Source: Candidatus Uhrbacteria bacterium (GTDB lineage Bacteria > Patescibacteriota > Patescibacteriia > UBA9934 > GWF2-40-263). Taken from it: a stretch of DNA of 64,000 nucleotides. Shown here piece by piece: positions 37,056 through 43,923 of the stretch. The DNA lies in assembly GCA_026395055.1 (NCBI GenBank), contig JAPLZK010000003.1, positions 35,855-99,854 of the forward strand, in the 5' to 3' direction. The notes beneath the pieces are model-generated. The model worked only from the letters and a program-made list of their open reading frames with translations, had not been told where the DNA came from and made no database searches. The translations under genes and the position numbers were made by a program. The first letter of the stretch is position 1. Each line of letters begins with the position of its first letter.

Positions 37056-37233
37056 GAGGGTGGGGGATTGCCACGCTCTCGAAAGCCAATGGCCGATCAG
37101 GGCTTTCTCCGCTCGGCAAATCCCCACCCTCGCAAATTGTCGCGATGGTCGATAGACGACAATTTGAACAAACCTTCGGTTTGCGAGCCATACAAAAAAC
37201 TCTAGTCGAAACTAGAGTTTTTTGTATGGCTCG
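37056..37233. repeat. Two large palindromes upstream of pepE at the island junction: a 16-bp-stem nested cruciform (37056–37131) and a perfect 23-bp-stem hairpin (37184–37233)
   Basis: GAGGGTGGGGGATTGCC…GGCAAATCCCCACCCTC encloses GAAAGCC…GGCTTTC. CGAGCCATACAAAAAACTCTAGT-cgaa-ACTAGAGTTTTTTGTATGGCTCG has its right arm overlapping the first 7 nt of the left direct repeat. Confidence 0.6.
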
Positions 37234-37294
37234 GAGTCCGGGAACAAGTGACAACCGTAATTGAAAGGAGTTTATCGACCGCTAATGATGCCCT
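37227..37294. repeat. Left 68-bp direct repeat (putative attL)
   Basis: 68/68 identity with 42289–42356. Confidence 0.8.
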
Positions 37295-37417
37295 GCCCAT
37301 CGTTGCGCTTTCCCGGGAAGGCGAAGAAGAGTGCGGGAGATTGCACCACGCGCGAATCCTGAGTGGGTATCTCTGGCTCAGTGGTCACAAAAAGACCTCT
37401 GATGGGGGATATCTGAC

Positions 37418-37639
37418 ATGAAGCTTTACGTGCCGTTCGCTACCTTTGCGACAACCGCATTTGTCTCGTTTCTTTTTTCGTCGTACATCCTTATCTACTA
37501 CGTTGTCCCTGCGCATGATTTGGAAGTAATCATGAAGGCTTCAACCGCCAGTGTCGTATTCGCACTCTTCGGCGTTGCCGTCGTCGGAATGACGAAATGG
37601 ACCCGTATTCCGGTACTTCCCCGAATGCTGAAACTCTAG
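37418..37639 (+). CDS. Small membrane protein (island cargo)
   Basis: 73 aa with two TM helices. Confidence 0.3.
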   Translation: MKLYVPFATFATTAFVSFLFSSYILIYYVVPAHDLEVIMKASTASVVFALFGVAVVGMTKWTRIPVLPRMLKL

Positions 37640-37861
37640 AAAGAGCGCATTCTTCAGGCTCCACCCAATCTGGCAAGATTGGGTGTTTTTGTTGCATCTG
37701 AGCTTTCGGTCTAGAGGCTACACAACAAATTTGCCGAAGCTACTGTTCCGCAAAGAATCCCCACGTATTCACTCAGTCGAACTTGGCGATAGGGGTCCTT
37801 GTGGCCGTGCCCTTGGAGGTGGTGTTCTATCCGTCGGAGCCCCGGCCGGCCCGGTCGGCGA

Positions 37862-38539
37862 ATGACATATTGTATCGCTATTCAGCGTTCCTCGGAACTT
37901 CTCGTCGTCAAGTTCCATCGATACTCGAAAAGCAGCAAACGTGCCAAACACGAGTGCTACTACGGCCCCCAAGAGGGCCACGTAGACGGCACATCCCCAC
38001 TTGCGAAGCAGTTGACCCTTGAACCGGAATCGGACTGTCTCATCGGCATCGCAACCGCGCGGCTTGACGCGGTTGACCAGCGGAACCCGAACCAGACCTT
38101 GACTCTCGCCACGCCGTACTTGCTGCAGGAAACGGCGATGGCGCATCAACGCGATTTGCCCTTTATCATCTTCAAGGCCGAAGGCGTCCACCTTCAGGGC
38201 GTAACCGCCCGGAACATCTACATCCCGATCCAGAAATCGGTCGGACCATCCGGGGGACTGCTTCTGGCGAGTGGCACTGACCACGCTGTCGCGCGGGCTG
38301 CGCTCGACAACCTGCTGCAGGAAGCTCTGGCGCGCAAGAAGCGGCGCGAAAGCAGTGATTTCTGGAACAAGATGAAGAACCTCGGCCTTGGGATTGCCGC
38401 AGTTGGGGCTGGAATCACGGCACTGGATGTTTACGGTCGGCCAGATTGCTTTGGCGGCTTCTACTACAACGACTCCGAATGCAAAGCCTGCGGGTACCGA
38501 TTGAAATGTAAAGGGAAAAAGGCGGAAGACGGCAGGTAG
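37862..38539 (+). CDS. Hypothetical protein (island cargo), Cys-rich C-terminus 'CFGGFYYNDSECKACGYRLKCKGK'
   Basis: The + frame has GC3 of about 75% over 38040–38540. Overlaps an antisense ORF (37769..38743). Start uncertain (37799 or 37862). Confidence 0.35.
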   Translation: MTYCIAIQRSSELLVVKFHRYSKSSKRAKHECYYGPQEGHVDGTSPLAKQLTLEPESDCLIGIATARLDAVDQRNPNQTLTLATPYLLQETAMAHQRDLPFIIFKAEGVHLQGVTARNIYIPIQKSVGPSGGLLLASGTDHAVARAALDNLLQEALARKKRRESSDFWNKMKNLGLGIAAVGAGITALDVYGRPDCFGGFYYNDSECKACGYRLKCKGKKAEDGR

Positions 38540-38784
38540 CAACACTGCATGAATGGCGCCGGGAGGGGCTGCATACGCAATCGCCGGCGGGAAAGCTATG
38601 GCGTTGGCTCCACGATATGCGAACATTTGCCCGGGGAAATACTGAACGCTTCGGTGTGTACCGGGACTTGACAAGCGATCGGTGTTGATCCAAATCGCAG
38701 TTGCGAGTTGCCAACGGCGGTCGCTGTGGAAAATCTGCTCCACTTCTTTGAAGGATTGCTGTAGAATGTCAAGCGGGGCACTTA

Positions 38785-40257
38785 ATGGAATTCAATGAAA
38801 TTCAAGTTGTTCCCCTGACAACCCAAGGGCAATGGAGCCAACTCAGGACTGCATGTCCGATGTTGACTTCATGGGGGCTGAAATTCCTTCAGCAAGGACT
38901 TGCTGACCATGTGAGAACTGCGGTAGTTGAGCGGCGTTATGTGTGCAAAGACCATCGGAATCTTCATAGCAATTTCTACTCAAAGAAATTCCAGATGCGG
39001 CAAGAGCCGTGCTCTCGCATCCACTTCTTCACCGAGAAGTTAAGTGACGAGTTTGACGTCTATGCTCCAACGGAGGAATTCTCGGCCGGATACGTTGGCT
39101 ACTCGGTCATTCGACCTGTGACGGAACGGTGCATCGGCAGAACGGTTCTTGACCCTTGGCTAATCGGCCGCGGCCCGAGTTCCGGTCACTTCATGCTCAG
39201 AACCGGTTTCAGGTCACATATCAACGGCACGCGCTTCAATGTCAGCGGATTTCCGATGATGTCGCAGGATTCCGAAGCAACGGTTTGTGCGCACTCAGCT
39301 CTTTGGAGCGTTTGTCGGTATCTATCGGAAAGGTACCCAGAGTATCCTGAGATCTATCCCTATGATCTCATTGATATGACGCAGGACGTCTCGCAAGGTC
39401 GACGTGTTCCTTATCGCGGTATGACCTACCGGGACTACGCAACAATCCTAAGTCAATTTGGCTGTCACCCGGTGGTTGTAAAGACTCGGGCAAGCACATT
39501 GGATACTACTTTGATCGAAGAAAAGTACCAGGATCTTTGCACATACGTAGAGTCAGGATTTCCGATTCTAGCAAGTCATCCCCGTCACGTTGTGGTAGCG
39601 ATTGGCCATACTCTCGATAAGTCCGCGACCCCGAAGCCTGATGGCGAGGGTCTCGTGAGCAGTTCAGAGTTTCTAAAGCAGTTCGTAGTAGTTGACGATA
39701 ACGCATTCCCGTATCGGCTGCTCGGTCGAGCCGCCGACCCGATGAACTACAGCAAGAAGTACTCGATCGAAACCATTCATTCGGCGGTTTGCCCGCTACC
39801 AGAGTTGGTGTTCCTTCCCGCAGAGGGTGCACGAAGGGCTGCGAAAAGCATACTGAGGCAGCTCCGAACTGAGTTCGGAGCAGCTCTCCTAGACGGCGAA
39901 GATGAGCCGTTGGTGACGCGACTGTTCTTGACAAACGCCTCTGCACTTCAGCGACGTCGCCGAGAGAAGGCGGGCATTGGTCCCACGTTCGACGAGGCAG
40001 TCTTGATTACGACGCGCATCCAACTTCCGCACTTTGTTTGGGTGATGGAAGTTGGCCCCATGTCGCTGTACAAACAAGGCTACTGCACCGCGGAGATTGT
40101 CCTTGATTCGACAGCGAACGAGCGTGAGGAATGCTTGATCTACGCTAGAGTCGGCTCAAATCTCGTGTGGTCGACGGACGGAGAATCGCTCTCAAAACCA
40201 ATTGTTAACGGCCACAGCCGAATTCATCAATACACCCACAACCTAGGAGAACACTAG
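38785..40257 (+). CDS. Hypothetical 490-aa protein with putative papain-fold (peptidase C39-like) Cys…His signature
   Basis: 'EATVCAHSALWSVCRYL' (Cys at a helix N-terminus) and about 95 aa later 'RHVVVAIGHTLD' (His on a β-strand), as in C39/BtrH-like peptidases. Assignment by motif only. Confidence 0.4.
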   Translation: MEFNEIQVVPLTTQGQWSQLRTACPMLTSWGLKFLQQGLADHVRTAVVERRYVCKDHRNLHSNFYSKKFQMRQEPCSRIHFFTEKLSDEFDVYAPTEEFSAGYVGYSVIRPVTERCIGRTVLDPWLIGRGPSSGHFMLRTGFRSHINGTRFNVSGFPMMSQDSEATVCAHSALWSVCRYLSERYPEYPEIYPYDLIDMTQDVSQGRRVPYRGMTYRDYATILSQFGCHPVVVKTRASTLDTTLIEEKYQDLCTYVESGFPILASHPRHVVVAIGHTLDKSATPKPDGEGLVSSSEFLKQFVVVDDNAFPYRLLGRAADPMNYSKKYSIETIHSAVCPLPELVFLPAEGARRAAKSILRQLRTEFGAALLDGEDEPLVTRLFLTNASALQRRRREKAGIGPTFDEAVLITTRIQLPHFVWVMEVGPMSLYKQGYCTAEIVLDSTANEREECLIYARVGSNLVWSTDGESLSKPIVNGHSRIHQYTHNLGEH

Positions 40258-40476
40258 ATGGAAAAAAAGCCTGGCGTCGCGACTAATCCACCTGTGCGCC
40301 GCTCGCTGCCGAATCTCAAGGAGTTCGTCGCCGACGCGAAGAGTACCCCCATTCTTGCGAATGCAATTGCAGAACTGCGAGCGCTCGATGAAGAGGAAGG
40401 TACGACCCCCGTTCAACGCTACAACACTGACTGGGCGATTCTCGCTAATGAAATTGTTGGCCAAGAGACGGTATAA
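40258..40476 (+). CDS. Small hypothetical protein co-transcribed with the 490-aa gene; followed by terminator 40496–40533
   Basis: ATG immediately after the upstream stop. 72 aa. Hairpin aaccgac…gtcggtt + T7 downstream. Confidence 0.35.
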   Translation: MEKKPGVATNPPVRRSLPNLKEFVADAKSTPILANAIAELRALDEEEGTTPVQRYNTDWAILANEIVGQETV

Positions 40477-40568
40477 CTGAATCGAAGCCACACAACCGGA
40501 CTCAACCGACTCGTGGAGAGGTCGGTTTTTTTGCTGGCGTCGATCGAAAAGTCAATAGTCACGCGCCG

Positions 40569-41120
40569 TCAGGCAACCACTCGGCAATTCGTGGCATTCA
40601 CTTTCTCGATCTCCGCCGCCAAAGTCGTATCCGCCAACCCGGCATAATGCTTCGCCGTTGTCGACACGTCCGCATGCCCGAGCATCCGCGACACGTAGAA
40701 GAGCGGCACGCCGCACTCAAGCCACCGCGCCCCACATGACCGTCGCAAACCATGAAAATCAATCTGGCGTACTTTCGCCTTCTTGCACGCGGCGACAGTG
40801 TCGCGGCGCAGGTTTCCTTTTCCGAACGTCCCTTGCGAGAACATGTAGCCGTCCGTGCCCCAGAGGCTCTTGGCCTCATCAAGAAGCTCGATCGCTCGGT
40901 CGTCGAGCGGGATTGCCCGTGCGCGAGATGACTTCGAAACCGGCACCGAGATCGCCGGACGACCAACCGTGCCGTGAATCGGGCAAGCACATCGTCGTTG
41001 ACGAGGCCCAAGCACGAGAACTCGCCGGTGGCCATGTCGGTCCAGTGCCAGATTCGTTCCAGGGCCGCGGCGTCGATCCAGACCCGCGGGCCCGTCCTGA
41101 TTTTCATGGAGTTTCTCCAA
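40569..41120 (-). pseudogene. Tyrosine-recombinase (phage-integrase family) C-terminal catalytic fragment
   Basis: 'RAIPLDD…FHGLRRSCGARWLECGVPLFYVSRMLGHADVSTTAKHYAGL' (K…HxxR…Y present). No box I Arg or N-terminal domain. The N-terminal part of the ORF is junk-like. Confidence 0.55.
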
Positions 41121-41285
41121 AATGGAGCAGCCCAGCCCCTGTCGAACTTCGGCAAGGGCTGGGTGCTCAGGTTGTTGTCGTGGTGCGTGACGCGGCGACT
41201 ATTCGTCGTCCTCGTGGTCCGAGCCGGGGCGGCGAGCTATGAGCTCGTCCTGCGTCAACGACTAGCTCGCGGAGAACCTGTTCTG

Positions 41286-42233
41286 ATGTCGGAACAGGCG
41301 GAACAATCATTCTCCGAATTCGCCGCTGAATGGTTTCGGACGTATGTGCAAACCAACAACAAGCCCAGCGAGCAACGCACGAAGATGCTTAATCTGAAGA
41401 ATCATCTTCTCCCGTTCTTCGGACGGCTTCCTTTGAAGAAGATCAGTTCTTCACTCGTCGAACAATACAAAGCGAAGAAACTCAGCGAGAACCTGTCACC
41501 GAAGACGGTGAACAACCATCTCGTTGTTCTCAGCAAGTGCCTTCATACCGCGAAGGATTGGGGACACGTCAACGACTGCCCGACCATCAAACATTTGAAG
41601 ACAGTATCCCAGCGACTTGATTTTCTGAGCCCGATCGAAAGCCAACAGCTCATTGAAAACGCCAGCTACCCGATGTGGCAGGAAATGGTCTTCCTGGCAC
41701 TCCGGACGGGGATGCGACTAGGTGAACTCTTCGGCCTGGAATGGCAAGACATCGATTTTCCCCGTCGACTACTCACGGTGCAACGGTCAATCGTTCAAGG
41801 AATTGTCGGAACGCCGAAGAACGGAAAGACGCGGCACATACCGCTAACAACGGACGTGTGCAGGGCGTTGTTCGAAATGCGCCAACCGGCGGGACTCGTC
41901 TTCGCGCGTCCAGATGGTTCACCTCTATCACATATCATGGCGCAGAATGCGATTCGACAGGTATGCAAACGTGCTGACGTCCGAAGGGTGTCGTGGCACA
42001 TTCTCAGGCACACGTTTGCATCGCAGCTGGCCACTCGTGGCGTTCCACTCACCGCCATCAAGGAGTTGCTTGGTCATTCATCTATCACGATGACCATGCG
42101 ATATGCGCACCTTGCGCCATCCACATTGCGCGATGCCGTTAATGTCCTTGAAAACCAAAAATCGCCCGAAAAGGAATCTCTTGGGCAACCGGTGGGCAAC
42201 GGAACCGCTTCCGTGGCAAATATGCGTGTCTAG
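41286..42233 (+). CDS. Tyrosine recombinase/integrase (phage integrase family)
   Basis: N-terminal SAM-like core-binding region, box I 'LRTGMRLGEL', 'KTRHIPL', box II 'HILRHTFASQLATRGVPLTAIKELLGHSSITMTMRYAHL'. Start chosen at MSEQAEQ; the track ORF 40974 extends upstream over the opposite-strand fragment. Confidence 0.8.
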   Translation: MSEQAEQSFSEFAAEWFRTYVQTNNKPSEQRTKMLNLKNHLLPFFGRLPLKKISSSLVEQYKAKKLSENLSPKTVNNHLVVLSKCLHTAKDWGHVNDCPTIKHLKTVSQRLDFLSPIESQQLIENASYPMWQEMVFLALRTGMRLGELFGLEWQDIDFPRRLLTVQRSIVQGIVGTPKNGKTRHIPLTTDVCRALFEMRQPAGLVFARPDGSPLSHIMAQNAIRQVCKRADVRRVSWHILRHTFASQLATRGVPLTAIKELLGHSSITMTMRYAHLAPSTLRDAVNVLENQKSPEKESLGQPVGNGTASVANMRV

Positions 42234-42288
42234 TTTCTCCAGAATGTGCACATTCACTGCACTTTCTGTCTATTACATGGTCTGATTC

Positions 42289-42356
42289 ATGGCTCGGAGT
42301 CCGGGAACAAGTGACAACCGTAATTGAAAGGAGTTTATCGACCGCTAATGATGCCC
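42289..42356. repeat. Right 68-bp direct repeat (putative attR)
   Basis: 68/68 identity with 37227–37294. Confidence 0.8.
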
Positions 42357-42414
42357 GTTACGATTCTGCTTGAACACGGTACGATGGAGTCACTAATTCA
42401 CTCATGTCATTTTC

Positions 42415-43431
42415 ATGTCAGTCATCATCTATGCTCGTGTCTCAACCGAGGAACAAGCCGAAACTGATTTATCGATTCCAGCACAGATTCGAGCCATGCA
42501 GGCTTATGCAGCAGGCACGCTCAATAAACCAATCGTTCAGGAATTCCAAGATGTGGCATCTGGTCGTTCAATGAAGGGGCGATCTGGTCTCCTTGCTGCA
42601 ATAAAATTTGCGAGTTTGCGTAAGGAAGTCGATACGTTTTTGGTTCATCGGATAGATCGCTTATCACGAGACATCGCCGATTATCATGTGATAAAGGCTA
42701 CGCTTGCAAAACACGGTATTCGTCTTGTTTCCGTCGTTGAACACACGGACAATACACCGGCTGGCGAACTCATGGAGAATATTTTCGCGTCGTTTGCTCA
42801 ATTCACCAGTGCGAAGATTGGATTTGAGGTGAGAAAAAGTTTGGAAGAACGGCTGCGACGTGGTGAGTGGACGGCGCAAGCTCCCGTTGGATATTTGCTC
42901 AAACAAAAGAAGTTGGTTCCAGATCCTGCCCGAGCACGTTTTGTACGCGAGGCGTTTCGGCGTTACGCGACGGAAACAATCAGTGTGTCACAACTTGCTC
43001 GCGAACTCGCTGAAATAGGATTCGTTGGTAAGCACGGAAAACCAATCGCCATCAACCGCATTTATACGATGTTGCACAACCCAATTTACATTGGTCGATT
43101 GAAAACGTCATTCGGTGAATTCCCAGGTAAACACCAACCGCTGATTGACGAAAATGTCTTTGAAATCTGTCAGAAACGGCTCAATCATGGTCGCGGAAAA
43201 GTTGCTCCTCGCCAAGCACAACATTTTCCTCTTGCGGGACAACTAAATTGTCCAACATGTGGAAGGGTCCTCATTGGCGAACACCACATCAAGAAAAGCG
43301 GAAGGGAATATCGGTACTACCGCTGTCATAATACAAAATGTCACTATTCAATTCATGCAGACGAGGTCGAGGCAAATATGACCATCATCGGAGACATACC
43401 ACCAAAGGTTCAATCAGATGATCTGAATTGA
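42415..43431 (+). CDS. Serine recombinase (resolvase N-domain + recombinase domain + C-terminal Zn ribbon)
   Basis: 'IIYARVSTEEQ' (catalytic Ser), 'VHRIDRLSRD', recombinase-domain 'YLLKQKKLVPDP', Zn ribbon 'CPTCGRVL…YYRCHNTKCHY'. Confidence 0.75.
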   Translation: MSVIIYARVSTEEQAETDLSIPAQIRAMQAYAAGTLNKPIVQEFQDVASGRSMKGRSGLLAAIKFASLRKEVDTFLVHRIDRLSRDIADYHVIKATLAKHGIRLVSVVEHTDNTPAGELMENIFASFAQFTSAKIGFEVRKSLEERLRRGEWTAQAPVGYLLKQKKLVPDPARARFVREAFRRYATETISVSQLARELAEIGFVGKHGKPIAINRIYTMLHNPIYIGRLKTSFGEFPGKHQPLIDENVFEICQKRLNHGRGKVAPRQAQHFPLAGQLNCPTCGRVLIGEHHIKKSGREYRYYRCHNTKCHYSIHADEVEANMTIIGDIPPKVQSDDLN

Positions 43432-43505
43432 TACCCCAACAGAATTCTTTCAACGCAAAAACTGCTCTGTTGAGCAGTTGCGGGATCGATATCCAGTTGA
43501 TTGTA

Positions 43506-43580
43506 TGGCTCCGAGGGTGGGGATCGAACCCACGACCATCTCGTTAACAGCGAGCCGCTCTGCCGCTGAGCTACCTCGGA
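43506..43580 (-). tRNA. tRNA-Asn (anticodon GTT) with encoded CCA
   Basis: Reverse complement reads TCCGAGG-TA-GCTC-AGCGGCA-GAGC-G-GCTCG-CTGTTAA-CGAGA-TGGTC-GTGGG-TTCGATC-CCCAC-CCTCGGA-G-CCA. Confidence 0.8.
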
Positions 43581-43825
43581 ATGTGTACTTTTGATTTTAG
43601 AAATTCTTTTCCAAAACCAGACTTAAACTTTTTCTCTTGTTGTCTTGCTTCCAGTCTTGTCTCAACTTCCAGTGTATATAAGATACTCCATGGAAGATAG
43701 GCTTTTGTCGAAGTCACTTGACCAGCATTATGTTCCTTTAATCGACGTTCAAGATGTTCGCTGAAGCCGACATATATTCGACCATCGCGTTCGCTTCTTA
43801 AAGCGTAGACTGTAAACATAACCAT
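43571..43825 (-). CDS. Small GIY-YIG nuclease family protein
   Basis: 'VYALRSERDGRIYVGFSEHLERRLKEHN' is a classic GIY-YIG. The start codon lies inside the upstream tRNA-fragment copy and the last 10 nt overlap the tRNA-Asn 5' end. Confidence 0.7.
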   Translation of the reverse strand: MVMFTVYALRSERDGRIYVGFSEHLERRLKEHNAGQVTSTKAYLPWSILYTLEVETRLEARQQEKKFKSGFGKEFLKSKVHIPR

Positions 43826-43887
43826 CTCGTTAACAGCGACCCGCTCCCTGCCTGCCGGCAGGCAGGTGCCGCTGAGCTACCTCGGAA
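43821..43887 (-). pseudogene. Duplicated 5' portion (nt 1 to about 47) of tRNA-Asn carrying a 20-bp perfect palindrome insertion in the D-loop
   Basis: Matches the tRNA-Asn 5' half except for CCTGCCTGCCGGCAGGCAGG inserted at 43847–43866 and one substitution. Confidence 0.6.
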
Positions 43888-43923
43888 TGTGGAGCGAGGA
43901 GATTATAACATGAGGATCTGAAA

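Follow-up and report, generated by a model that had tools for sequence, protein, structure and literature searches.

A putative selfish cassette of a minimal GIY-YIG nuclease gene and a 20-bp palindrome in a tRNA-Asn gene of a Candidatus Uhrbacteria bacterium

In this work, we analyzed a tRNA-Asn locus in a 64,000-nt stretch of contig JAPLZK010000003.1 from a Candidatus Uhrbacteria bacterium (assembly GCA_026395055.1); the whole stretch is referred to as the window, and the coordinates given for it are positions within it. On the minus strand, the native tRNA promoter is followed by a tRNA-Asn copy split by a 20-bp palindrome (hereafter PAL), a gene for a small GIY-YIG nuclease and an intact tRNA-Asn(GTT). 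Comparison with homologous loci leads us to conclude with high confidence that selfish cassettes of a widespread family reside in bacterial tRNA genes and that one of them occupies this locus. As far as the sequences indicate, the constant parts of the cassette are the GIY-YIG gene, of ~80 aa, and the GC-rich PAL, enclosed in a partial direct duplication of the tRNA in which the promoter-proximal copy appears to be a dead 5' fragment and the distal copy a complete tRNA fused to the 3' end of the open reading frame (ORF). The cassette is probably homing-like: the tRNA sequence would serve it as portable homology, and its expression would be driven from the tRNA promoter.

A nuclease gene within a partially duplicated tRNA

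ARAGORN and Rfam call a single intact tRNA-Asn(GTT) at the locus (64.6 bits in Rfam), which is uninterrupted and looks functional, and neither calls a tRNA in the upstream copy (43891-43821, minus strand). This broken copy consists of the 5-nt leader CACAT followed by tRNA nt 1-46, with PAL inserted after nt 20 (Table 1), and the single C>G change in the segment beyond PAL disrupts a pair of its anticodon stem. An earlier interpretation made from the DNA letters alone (the sequence-only reading) had described a duplicated tRNA-Asn 5' half carrying a palindrome, with a GIY-YIG gene wedged before a tRNA that stayed functional; ARAGORN, Rfam, the repeats and the PF01541 match bear this out. It was also right in placing the end of the ORF inside the intact tRNA, as the stop codon TAG (43573-43571) coincides with tRNA nt 8-10. 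Its proposal that the ATG too lies inside tRNA sequence did not hold. The conserved start is ATG 43819 (MFTVYAL), which is annotated by NCBI, aligns with residue 1 of the homologues and lies just past the tRNA-derived stretch, whereas ATG 43825, within that stretch, is only the start of the longest ORF, and the tRNA-internal ATG is out of frame in an 84%-identical relative (L001; loci and contigs are designated by L numbers). The reading frame probably ends inside the tRNA, then, and does not begin in tRNA sequence. Features of a tRNA group I intron were absent, Rfam finding only the tRNA at both E-value and gathering thresholds, and no Rfam motif was found for the fragment plus PAL.

Abutted by the ORF, the intact tRNA-Asn has no promoter of its own. 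The TGTTATAAT box of the window also belongs to the empty sites: the window's block TTGTTATAATC..CGTCGC precedes tRNA-Asn in an empty locus (L108), in a locus with a remnant (L136) and in the occupied L001 and L003; a generic sigma-70 scan did not call the promoter at 43902..43910 and found no -35 match. The Bacteroidota promoter motif TAnnTTTG precedes the fragment in 17 of 39 loci and the intact tRNA in 2 of 39. Since the promoter elements lie upstream of the dead fragment and not of the intact tRNA, the ORF and the tRNA are expected to form a single transcript.

The ORF (43571-43825, minus strand) matches the GIY-YIG family PF01541 with 50.2 bits (cut-off 22.6; E 3e-13). Its product is 100% identical to an NCBI protein of a Candidatus Uhrbacteria metagenome-assembled genome (MAG), and the homologues are proteins of 77-82 aa from Bacteroidota, Patescibacteria and Omnitrophota. 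The catalytic residues Y5, Y16, R26 and E62, and also G18, are invariant in an alignment of 26 sequences, and the catalytic H30 is nearly so. The 82 aa, modelled by AlphaFold2 with a predicted local distance difference test (pLDDT) score of 91.5, are taken up entirely by the catalytic domain, and a separate DNA-binding domain of the I-TevI/Seg kind is missing. The best match in the PDB by phmmer is 1YWL (E 2.5e-5), and ranks 1-8 in Foldseek belong to 1ZG2, Slx1 (6SEI, 6SEH, 7CQ2, 7CQ3, 4XLG) and 1YWL, with I-TevI later at E >0.1; fold matches thus include UPF0213, Slx1, I-TevI and UvrC-N, those to I-TevI and UvrC being more distant. Sequence and model alike suggest that the protein is a minimal member of the Slx1/UPF0213-type (YhbQ-like) clade, and not of the I-TevI/Seg or UvrC ones. 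No Y1/HUH transposase match to the ORF was obtained in the Pfam scan. The ratio of non-synonymous to synonymous substitution rates (dN/dS) of the ORF is 0.10 against L001 (dS 0.78) and 0.09 against L003 (dS 1.83), which points to strong purifying selection. Around 5,243 clusters at 50% identity match the protein at E <=1e-3, and 359 at <=1e-10. Many of these matches are 100-130 aa long, probably through gene callers reading through the fragment and PAL, and the C-termini of some homologues translate tRNA 5' ends (e.g. "PVAQLDRA").

A profile built from nine sequences gave at least 557 matches in contigs of one genome per species, and the best 80 of these were analyzed as homologous loci; they come from Bacteroidota, the candidate phyla radiation (CPR), Omnitrophota and other taxa. 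Since cultured isolates (e.g. Mangrovibacterium marinum DSM 28823) and a complete genome (AP035880) are among them, an assembly artefact is excluded. A tRNA on the same strand begins within 100 nt past the ORF end in 64/80 loci, the stop codon lies inside the tRNA in 38/80 (mostly at U8-A9-G10), and the 5' part of the tRNA is duplicated upstream of the ORF in 61 of the 64 (z >=5 versus shuffles). Fifteen anticodons are involved: five of Arg, three of Leu, and those of Asn, Met, Phe, Gly, Lys, Ser and Thr. PAL, with up to three mismatches, is found within 200 nt upstream of the ORF in 53/80 loci, and most of the loci without it carry shortened, nested or related GC-rich hairpins. In 31 of the 39 mapped loci PAL stands after A21, between TA and G. 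The 3' limit of the tRNA fragment varies across the family, from ~nt 26 to 72, the constant landmarks being the position of PAL and the junction of the ORF with tRNA +1; the fragment of L011 still scores 44 bits as a tRNA. The leader common to both copies is only 0-1 nt long in 22/39 loci, so the repeat starts at tRNA +1. The closest relatives with DNA available, L001 (84% aa identity) and L003 (73%), have the identical layout and the identical PAL. In clustering by the unweighted pair group method with arithmetic mean (UPGMA), the ORFs next to Gly-TCC join Eremiobacterota with Acidobacteriota and those next to Leu join Saccharibacteria with Bacteroidota, for a protein of only ~77 aa. In two loci (L024 ~2735-2900 and L038 ~600-800), a long insert, which may be an intron, seemingly interrupts the tRNA after the ORF just past its anticodon loop; no tRNA is called there by ARAGORN, nor any intron by Rfam at the gathering threshold.

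Occupancy of the tRNA-Asn site and the palindrome

The tRNA-Asn site is polymorphic for the presence of the cassette. It is occupied in the window, L001 and L003. In L108, an exact empty site, an identical tRNA stands between the common TTGTTATAAT promoter block and the common terminator with nothing inserted, and L092, also with an identical tRNA-Asn and that terminator, likewise has the promoter and the intact tRNA only; in L136, which is syntenic on both sides, just a decayed fragment with hairpins is left. The empty sites of relatives that share this very tRNA-Asn show the cassette to be an insertion, and these empty and remnant loci sustain the earlier view of the locus as the footprint of an inserted GIY-YIG element. 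Furthermore, 69 metagenome contigs were found by means of the anticodon-arm segment of tRNA-Asn. In all 69 the tRNA-Asn that contains the matched segment is uninterrupted and is accompanied by no PAL, and a GIY-YIG homologue lies within ~600 nt of the tRNA in only three (L135, L138 and L151); this count, together with the arrays and remnants, is not the stable single-gene inheritance of a housekeeping-type gene. The sequence-only reading had named as evidence against itself a GIY-YIG gene next to tRNA-Asn without a tRNA fragment. Such a case was indeed found (L002), but it is not diagnostic, the family being patchy and insertion-like rather than housekeeping. The ORFs of L001 and L002 are identical at 246/246 nt, and the sequences just upstream of their ATG are unrelated. 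In L151 (Ga0209105_101095), the resident tRNA-Asn is split at ~nt 53/54 by an insert without PAL, the order being a different intact tRNA-Asn, the GIY-YIG ORF and the resident 3' fragment.

From its sequence, the cassette looks active. L009 holds two fragment-PAL-ORF units of 295 bp with 100% identity. Arrays that break off at the contig ends are seen in L008, L061 and L070, and in L082 ORFs with 95% identity stand in tandem; L052 shows the mirror arrangement, in which an intact tRNA and the ORF are followed by a 3' fragment with PAL. A simple insertion of the ORF together with a tRNA was rejected, given that the leftover 3' tRNA fragment expected downstream is absent in 57/64 loci and in the window. 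That either the fragment or the intact tRNA came from a foreign source was also rejected, the two copies being mostly identical or distinguished by single non-compensatory changes in the 28 loci compared.

The 64-kb window contains one exact copy of PAL, with none expected by chance (100 shuffles). PAL is identical at 20/20 positions among the window, L001 and L003 despite saturated synonymous sites in their ORFs, and 49 of 71 copies are perfect, which suggests that it is constrained or constantly renewed. The idea that the palindrome might be a later secondary insertion is contradicted by this identity and by the fact that the same 20-mer splits the broken copy in most of the 80 loci and in 15 kinds of tRNA. 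Its density is also uneven: 71 copies in 0.38 Mb of loci with the ORF versus one copy in 0.39 Mb of tRNA-Asn loci without it. Besides, a second PAL-like palindrome, CCTACCTGCCGGTAGGCAGG, occurs in the window at 26997-27016, with two mismatches (G4>A, C13>T), the two altered positions forming a pair within a shifted 6-bp register; it lies in a stretch of ~1 kb (26710-27700) without Pfam or Rfam match.

PAL is not always accompanied by the ORF. Solo units of fragment plus PAL were found in L020, L083, L028 and L032, and in L030 and L035 one PAL is nested in another, one base off its centre. Two pseudo-copies of tRNA-Arg(TCT) follow the intact tRNA in L026 (2880-2990 and 3110-3210) with no ORF between them, and each carries two PALs, after nt 21 and after nt 38. 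In viral contigs, PAL is seen in the variable loop of tRNA-Met (L177 2239-2330 and L154 near 8616); this tRNA is still called, with 92 nt and 50 bits in Rfam, and it may tolerate PAL in the manner of a long extra arm. At non-tRNA viral sites, PAL has flanking direct repeats in L155 at 1660 (8 bp), L161 at 8396 (14 bp) and L171 at 3391 (7 bp), such repeats being absent at most other viral PAL sites. The positions in tRNAs (after nt 9, 21, 26, 31, 38 and 53) had given rise to the idea that PAL targets stem/loop boundaries in general. This was rejected, as 39 non-redundant viral sites were no different from control positions in their distance to predicted hairpin-loop boundaries (p 0.35-0.57); in Leu and other tRNAs, PAL sites also lie within loops or stems.

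Other GC-rich hairpins have been inserted as well. One, TTTACCTCCCGCAGGGAGG, is found in broken tRNA copies of CPR Asn loci, and the family CCCGCC...GGCGGG(CAGG) goes with more distant ORFs. Loci with such hairpins are L003 (556-605), L013, L022 and L043 (in the upstream fragments), L034, L062, L068, L073, L074, L135 and L136, and their distribution hints that the hairpin type co-varies with the nuclease clade.

The other side of the intact tRNA harbors separate mobile DNA. Some 6.3 kb with two recombinase genes are integrated at the tRNA 3' end, in keeping with the layered integration hotspot anticipated by the sequence-only reading. The native downstream flank of the tRNA (terminator and beyond) is found at 37236 and below, where the window, down to 37090, aligns with the sequence directly past the tRNA in L136 and L108. 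A unit of 5,063 bp with 51-56% GC is bounded by perfect direct repeats of 68 bp (37226-37293 and 42289-42356), which end in a degenerate tRNA-Asn 3' end (..CTCCGAGCCA); no Pfam match was obtained for the ORFs that it carries as cargo (37769-38743 and 38785-40257). The serine recombinase gene, outside this unit, looks like the remnant of an element integrated earlier. Both elements are separate from the GIY-YIG cassette: between the tRNA repeats the GIY-YIG ORF stands alone, with no integrase or recombinase gene.

Table 1 Features of the tRNA-Asn locus and of the adjoining integrated DNA in the window
Feature	Coordinates	Strand	Remarks
Native tRNA promoter, extended -10 box TGTTATAAT	43902..43910	-	By conservation only; upstream of the broken tRNA copy
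X1: CACAT leader (5 nt) and tRNA-Asn nt 1-20 (nt 1-20 = 43886-43867)	43867..43891	-	25/25 identical to 43561-43585
PAL: perfect 20-bp palindrome CCTGCCTGCCGGCAGGCAGG in the D-loop of the broken copy, between GGCA and GAGC	43847..43866	-	
Y': tRNA-Asn nt 21-46 (D-stem 3' strand, anticodon arm, start of variable loop)	43821..43846	-	25/26 identical to 43535-43560
Gene of the GIY-YIG nuclease (82 aa if read from the conserved ATG, 84 aa from in-frame ATG 43825)	43571..43819	-	PF01541
Intact tRNA-Asn(GTT), CCA encoded	43506..43580	-	ARAGORN, Rfam
Terminator-like hairpin and T-run after the tRNA	43460..43479	-	Within the DNA integrated at the tRNA 3' end
DNA of ~6.3 kb integrated at the tRNA 3' end	37233..43500	.	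11-bp repeat GAGCCATACAA at 43511-43501 and 37232-37222
Large serine recombinase gene (Resolvase, Recombinase, Zn-ribbon)	42415-43431	+	The only gene from the tRNA 3' end to the first 68-bp repeat
Tyrosine integrase	40974-42233	+	Inside the 5,063-bp unit

Proposed mechanism and competing explanations

For the way in which such a cassette may spread we propose a specific mechanism, in which we have modest confidence. From the native tRNA promoter, a single RNA would be made that spans the fragment, the ORF and the tRNA. Cutting at tRNA +1, RNase P would free the tRNA and at the same time take off the stop codon of the ORF, resulting in a low output of nuclease. The nuclease, we infer, breaks DNA in or beside a tRNA gene, and recombination between homologous tRNA sequences would then copy PAL, the ORF and the 5' part of the tRNA into the homologous gene, the conservation of tRNA sequence between species allowing the spread from one species to another. 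As an intact tRNA is regenerated each time, insertion could be repeated and arrays would arise. PAL might act as a functional cis element, either as a recognition or cleavage handle for the nuclease or as an interruption that immunises the dead copy; by splitting the repeat into stretches of ~20-26 bp, it might also hinder deletion of the cassette by recombination. The apparent tracking of tRNA identity by the ORF clusters and the start of the repeat at tRNA +1 fit a spread by tRNA-based recombination. It is tempting to speculate further that PAL and the minimal GIY-YIG protein constitute an unrecognised two-component mobile system, in which an Slx1-like, structure-guided nuclease, a hairpin as cis handle and tRNA homology arms would enable a cassette of ~320 bp to move between phyla, regenerate its target and form arrays while RNase P throttles the synthesis of the nuclease; we offer this larger proposal tentatively, as one possibility.

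Several observations weigh against a homing-like cassette as the explanation. The sequence fits three equivalent descriptions of the insertion, because the flanks are repeats, and the fragment is nearly identical to the local tRNA, without compensatory differences that would prove a foreign origin. The bare catalytic domain, with no DNA-binding domain, leaves site-specific cutting unexplained, and if the D-loop is the target, the intact tRNA beside the ORF keeps it, which argues against simple immunity. As regards a vehicle for transfer between phyla, no homologue of the ORF was found by tblastn in plasmid and phage collections at E <=1e-5. Some members of the family (L033, L075 and L002) lack PAL; in turn, viral contigs contain PAL, with no ORF, at ~35 sites outside tRNAs, and PAL possibly has an independent life. 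Finally, the 80 loci are the top-scoring subset, and the percentages obtained from them are valid for the close family only.

The viral sites lend weight to an account that we consider unlikely, in which it is PAL itself that is mobile and has the GIY-YIG protein for its dedicated nuclease, as in REP/RAYT systems; the Slx1-like nuclease would recognise the PAL hairpin or cruciform and move or copy it, tRNA genes being favoured landing sites and the tRNA duplications and ORF position by-products of break repair. PALs standing alone in complete tRNA paralogues (two in each pseudo-tRNA of L026), in the variable loop of phage tRNA-Met and at ORF-less viral sites, three of them with flanking direct repeats of 7-14 bp, would follow naturally from it, and so would the nested PALs and the fragment plus PAL units devoid of ORF. 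The enrichment of PAL in loci with the ORF, the hint of protein-hairpin co-variation given by the distant ORFs with different hairpin families, and a protein fold of the structure-specific nuclease type also agree with it. However, the chemistry of GIY-YIG enzymes is DNA hydrolysis, and strand transfer is not known for them. In the fetched loci PAL is confined to the neighbourhood of the tRNA and the ORF, and the window has a single exact copy; outside tRNAs it shows no preference for predicted hairpin boundaries; and this account leaves unexplained the precise fusion of the ORF to tRNA +1. The model of the sequence-only reading, a mirror image of 3'-end integration, supposed that an element with tRNA nt 1-47 had integrated once and site-specifically at position 47/48, the palindrome either having come later through an unrelated insertion or being a processing signal. 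Although the direct repeat of leader and nt 1-46 flanking the ORF and the empty sites agree with it, we find it improbable: the cassette encodes no recombinase and both recombinases belong to elements on the other side of the tRNA, while an insertion point at 47/48 is neither singled out by the repeats, which permit three descriptions, nor kept in the family, in which the fragment 3' limit ranges over nt 26-72 and PAL is nearly universal, positionally fixed and conserved where neutral sites are saturated.

A module serving the host or acting as RNA, in which the fragment-PAL RNA and the nuclease form a regulatory or toxin/antitoxin-like pair (type III-like) tied to tRNA expression or quality control, strikes us as very improbable. 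The placement of the promoter does imply co-transcription of tRNA-like leader, ORF and tRNA, the ORF is under purifying selection, and a prokaryotic Slx1-like domain fused to a tRNA Gm18 methyltransferase led the 2006 survey of the GIY-YIG superfamily to suggest a role in RNA metabolism (PMC1564403). Notwithstanding, the cassette is distributed patchily, close relatives having empty sites, and the arrays, remnants and pseudo-tRNAs resemble the dynamics of selfish DNA. An RNA-level constraint on PAL was rejected, its substitutions (11 C>T versus 7 G>A) having no significant sense-strand bias of the kind that retains G-U pairs, and the 5' leader RNA folds no better than shuffled sequence (z -1.5). 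We can hardly credit a local duplication beside a housekeeping YhbQ-like gene or an assembly artefact, to which the MAG source and the fragment-less ORF and tRNA-Asn of L002 might have pointed: the structure recurs in dozens of independent assemblies, including isolates and one complete genome, and most of the related tRNA-Asn loci lack the gene. Altogether, a selfish cassette that spreads through tRNA homology remains the reading that we favor.

Relation to known systems

In the open literature, to which the search was confined, we found no account of such an arrangement, and the cassette is seemingly undescribed. If our interpretation is correct, it would be among the smallest self-propagating DNA elements of bacteria (~320 bp and one protein of 80 aa) and would represent a new answer to the problem of insertion into an essential gene, namely that the gene is duplicated and regenerated with no splicing out. 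It would also provide the first concrete biology for the large bacterial UPF0213/Slx1-like family of unknown function, and explain (i) mis-annotated "GIY-YIG nuclease family protein" genes whose odd N- or C-terminal extensions are read through PAL or tRNA and (ii) pseudo-tRNAs and contig breaks at tRNA genes in assemblies of Bacteroidota and CPR. The combination of a palindrome invariant across phyla and a nuclease without DNA-binding domain poses a testable problem of protein-DNA (or protein-hairpin) recognition with possible value as a tool, and tRNA sequence as portable homology is a plausible route of gene flow between distant phyla.

Slx1 acts with Slx4 on branched DNA in repair. Together with the UPF0213 proteins (YhbQ, YazA, BH0048 and EF2693), it is the closest match of the cassette protein in sequence and fold, and they have in common the minimal GIY-YIG core and the catalytic residues. 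The searchable literature makes no mention of tRNA linkage or of a palindrome for bacterial UPF0213 proteins, and in the 2006 superfamily survey the Slx1-like proteins of prokaryotes figure as minimal domains with no known role (PMC1564403).

The pairing of a short GC-rich palindrome, which also occurs solo, with a single small gene of nuclease type resembles the REP/REPIN-RAYT systems. RAYTs are HUH Y1 transposases, and REP copies, scattered between genes, number in the hundreds, whereas the cassette encodes a GIY-YIG enzyme and PAL is concentrated in tRNA genes beside the ORF. With the islands and prophages that integrate into tRNA genes, the cassette shares a flanking direct repeat of part of the tRNA and the preservation of a functional tRNA; such elements are said, in an account that goes back to Zhao and Williams (J Bacteriol, 2002), to regenerate the tRNA, with rare ones using its 5' end, and the integration at the 3' end in the window is a classical example. 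They are kilobases long, however, and encode a tyrosine or serine recombinase, while the cassette has ~320 bp, a nuclease only and a repeat interrupted by PAL.

The closest precedent is SegB of phages T4 and T6, a GIY-YIG homing endonuclease whose cleavage sites lie in tRNA genes, at a conserved motif of the tRNA, and which spreads with tRNA genes and drives the recombination-dependent tandem amplification of segB and tRNA genes, truncated copies included (PMC2330249; PMC13096335). A GIY-YIG gene among tRNA genes and its tandem amplification are mirrored in the tRNA linkage and the arrays of the cassette. SegB, however, has 221 aa with a DNA-binding part, is borne by phages and lies between intact tRNA genes, whereas the cassette encodes a bare domain of ~80 aa from the Slx1/UPF0213 clade, resides in the bacterial chromosome, is fused to tRNA +1 and comes with a partial tRNA duplicate and PAL. 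The minimal protein, the fusion to tRNA +1, the partial duplication that regenerates the tRNA and the palindrome that spans phyla are the features by which the cassette departs from all precedents.

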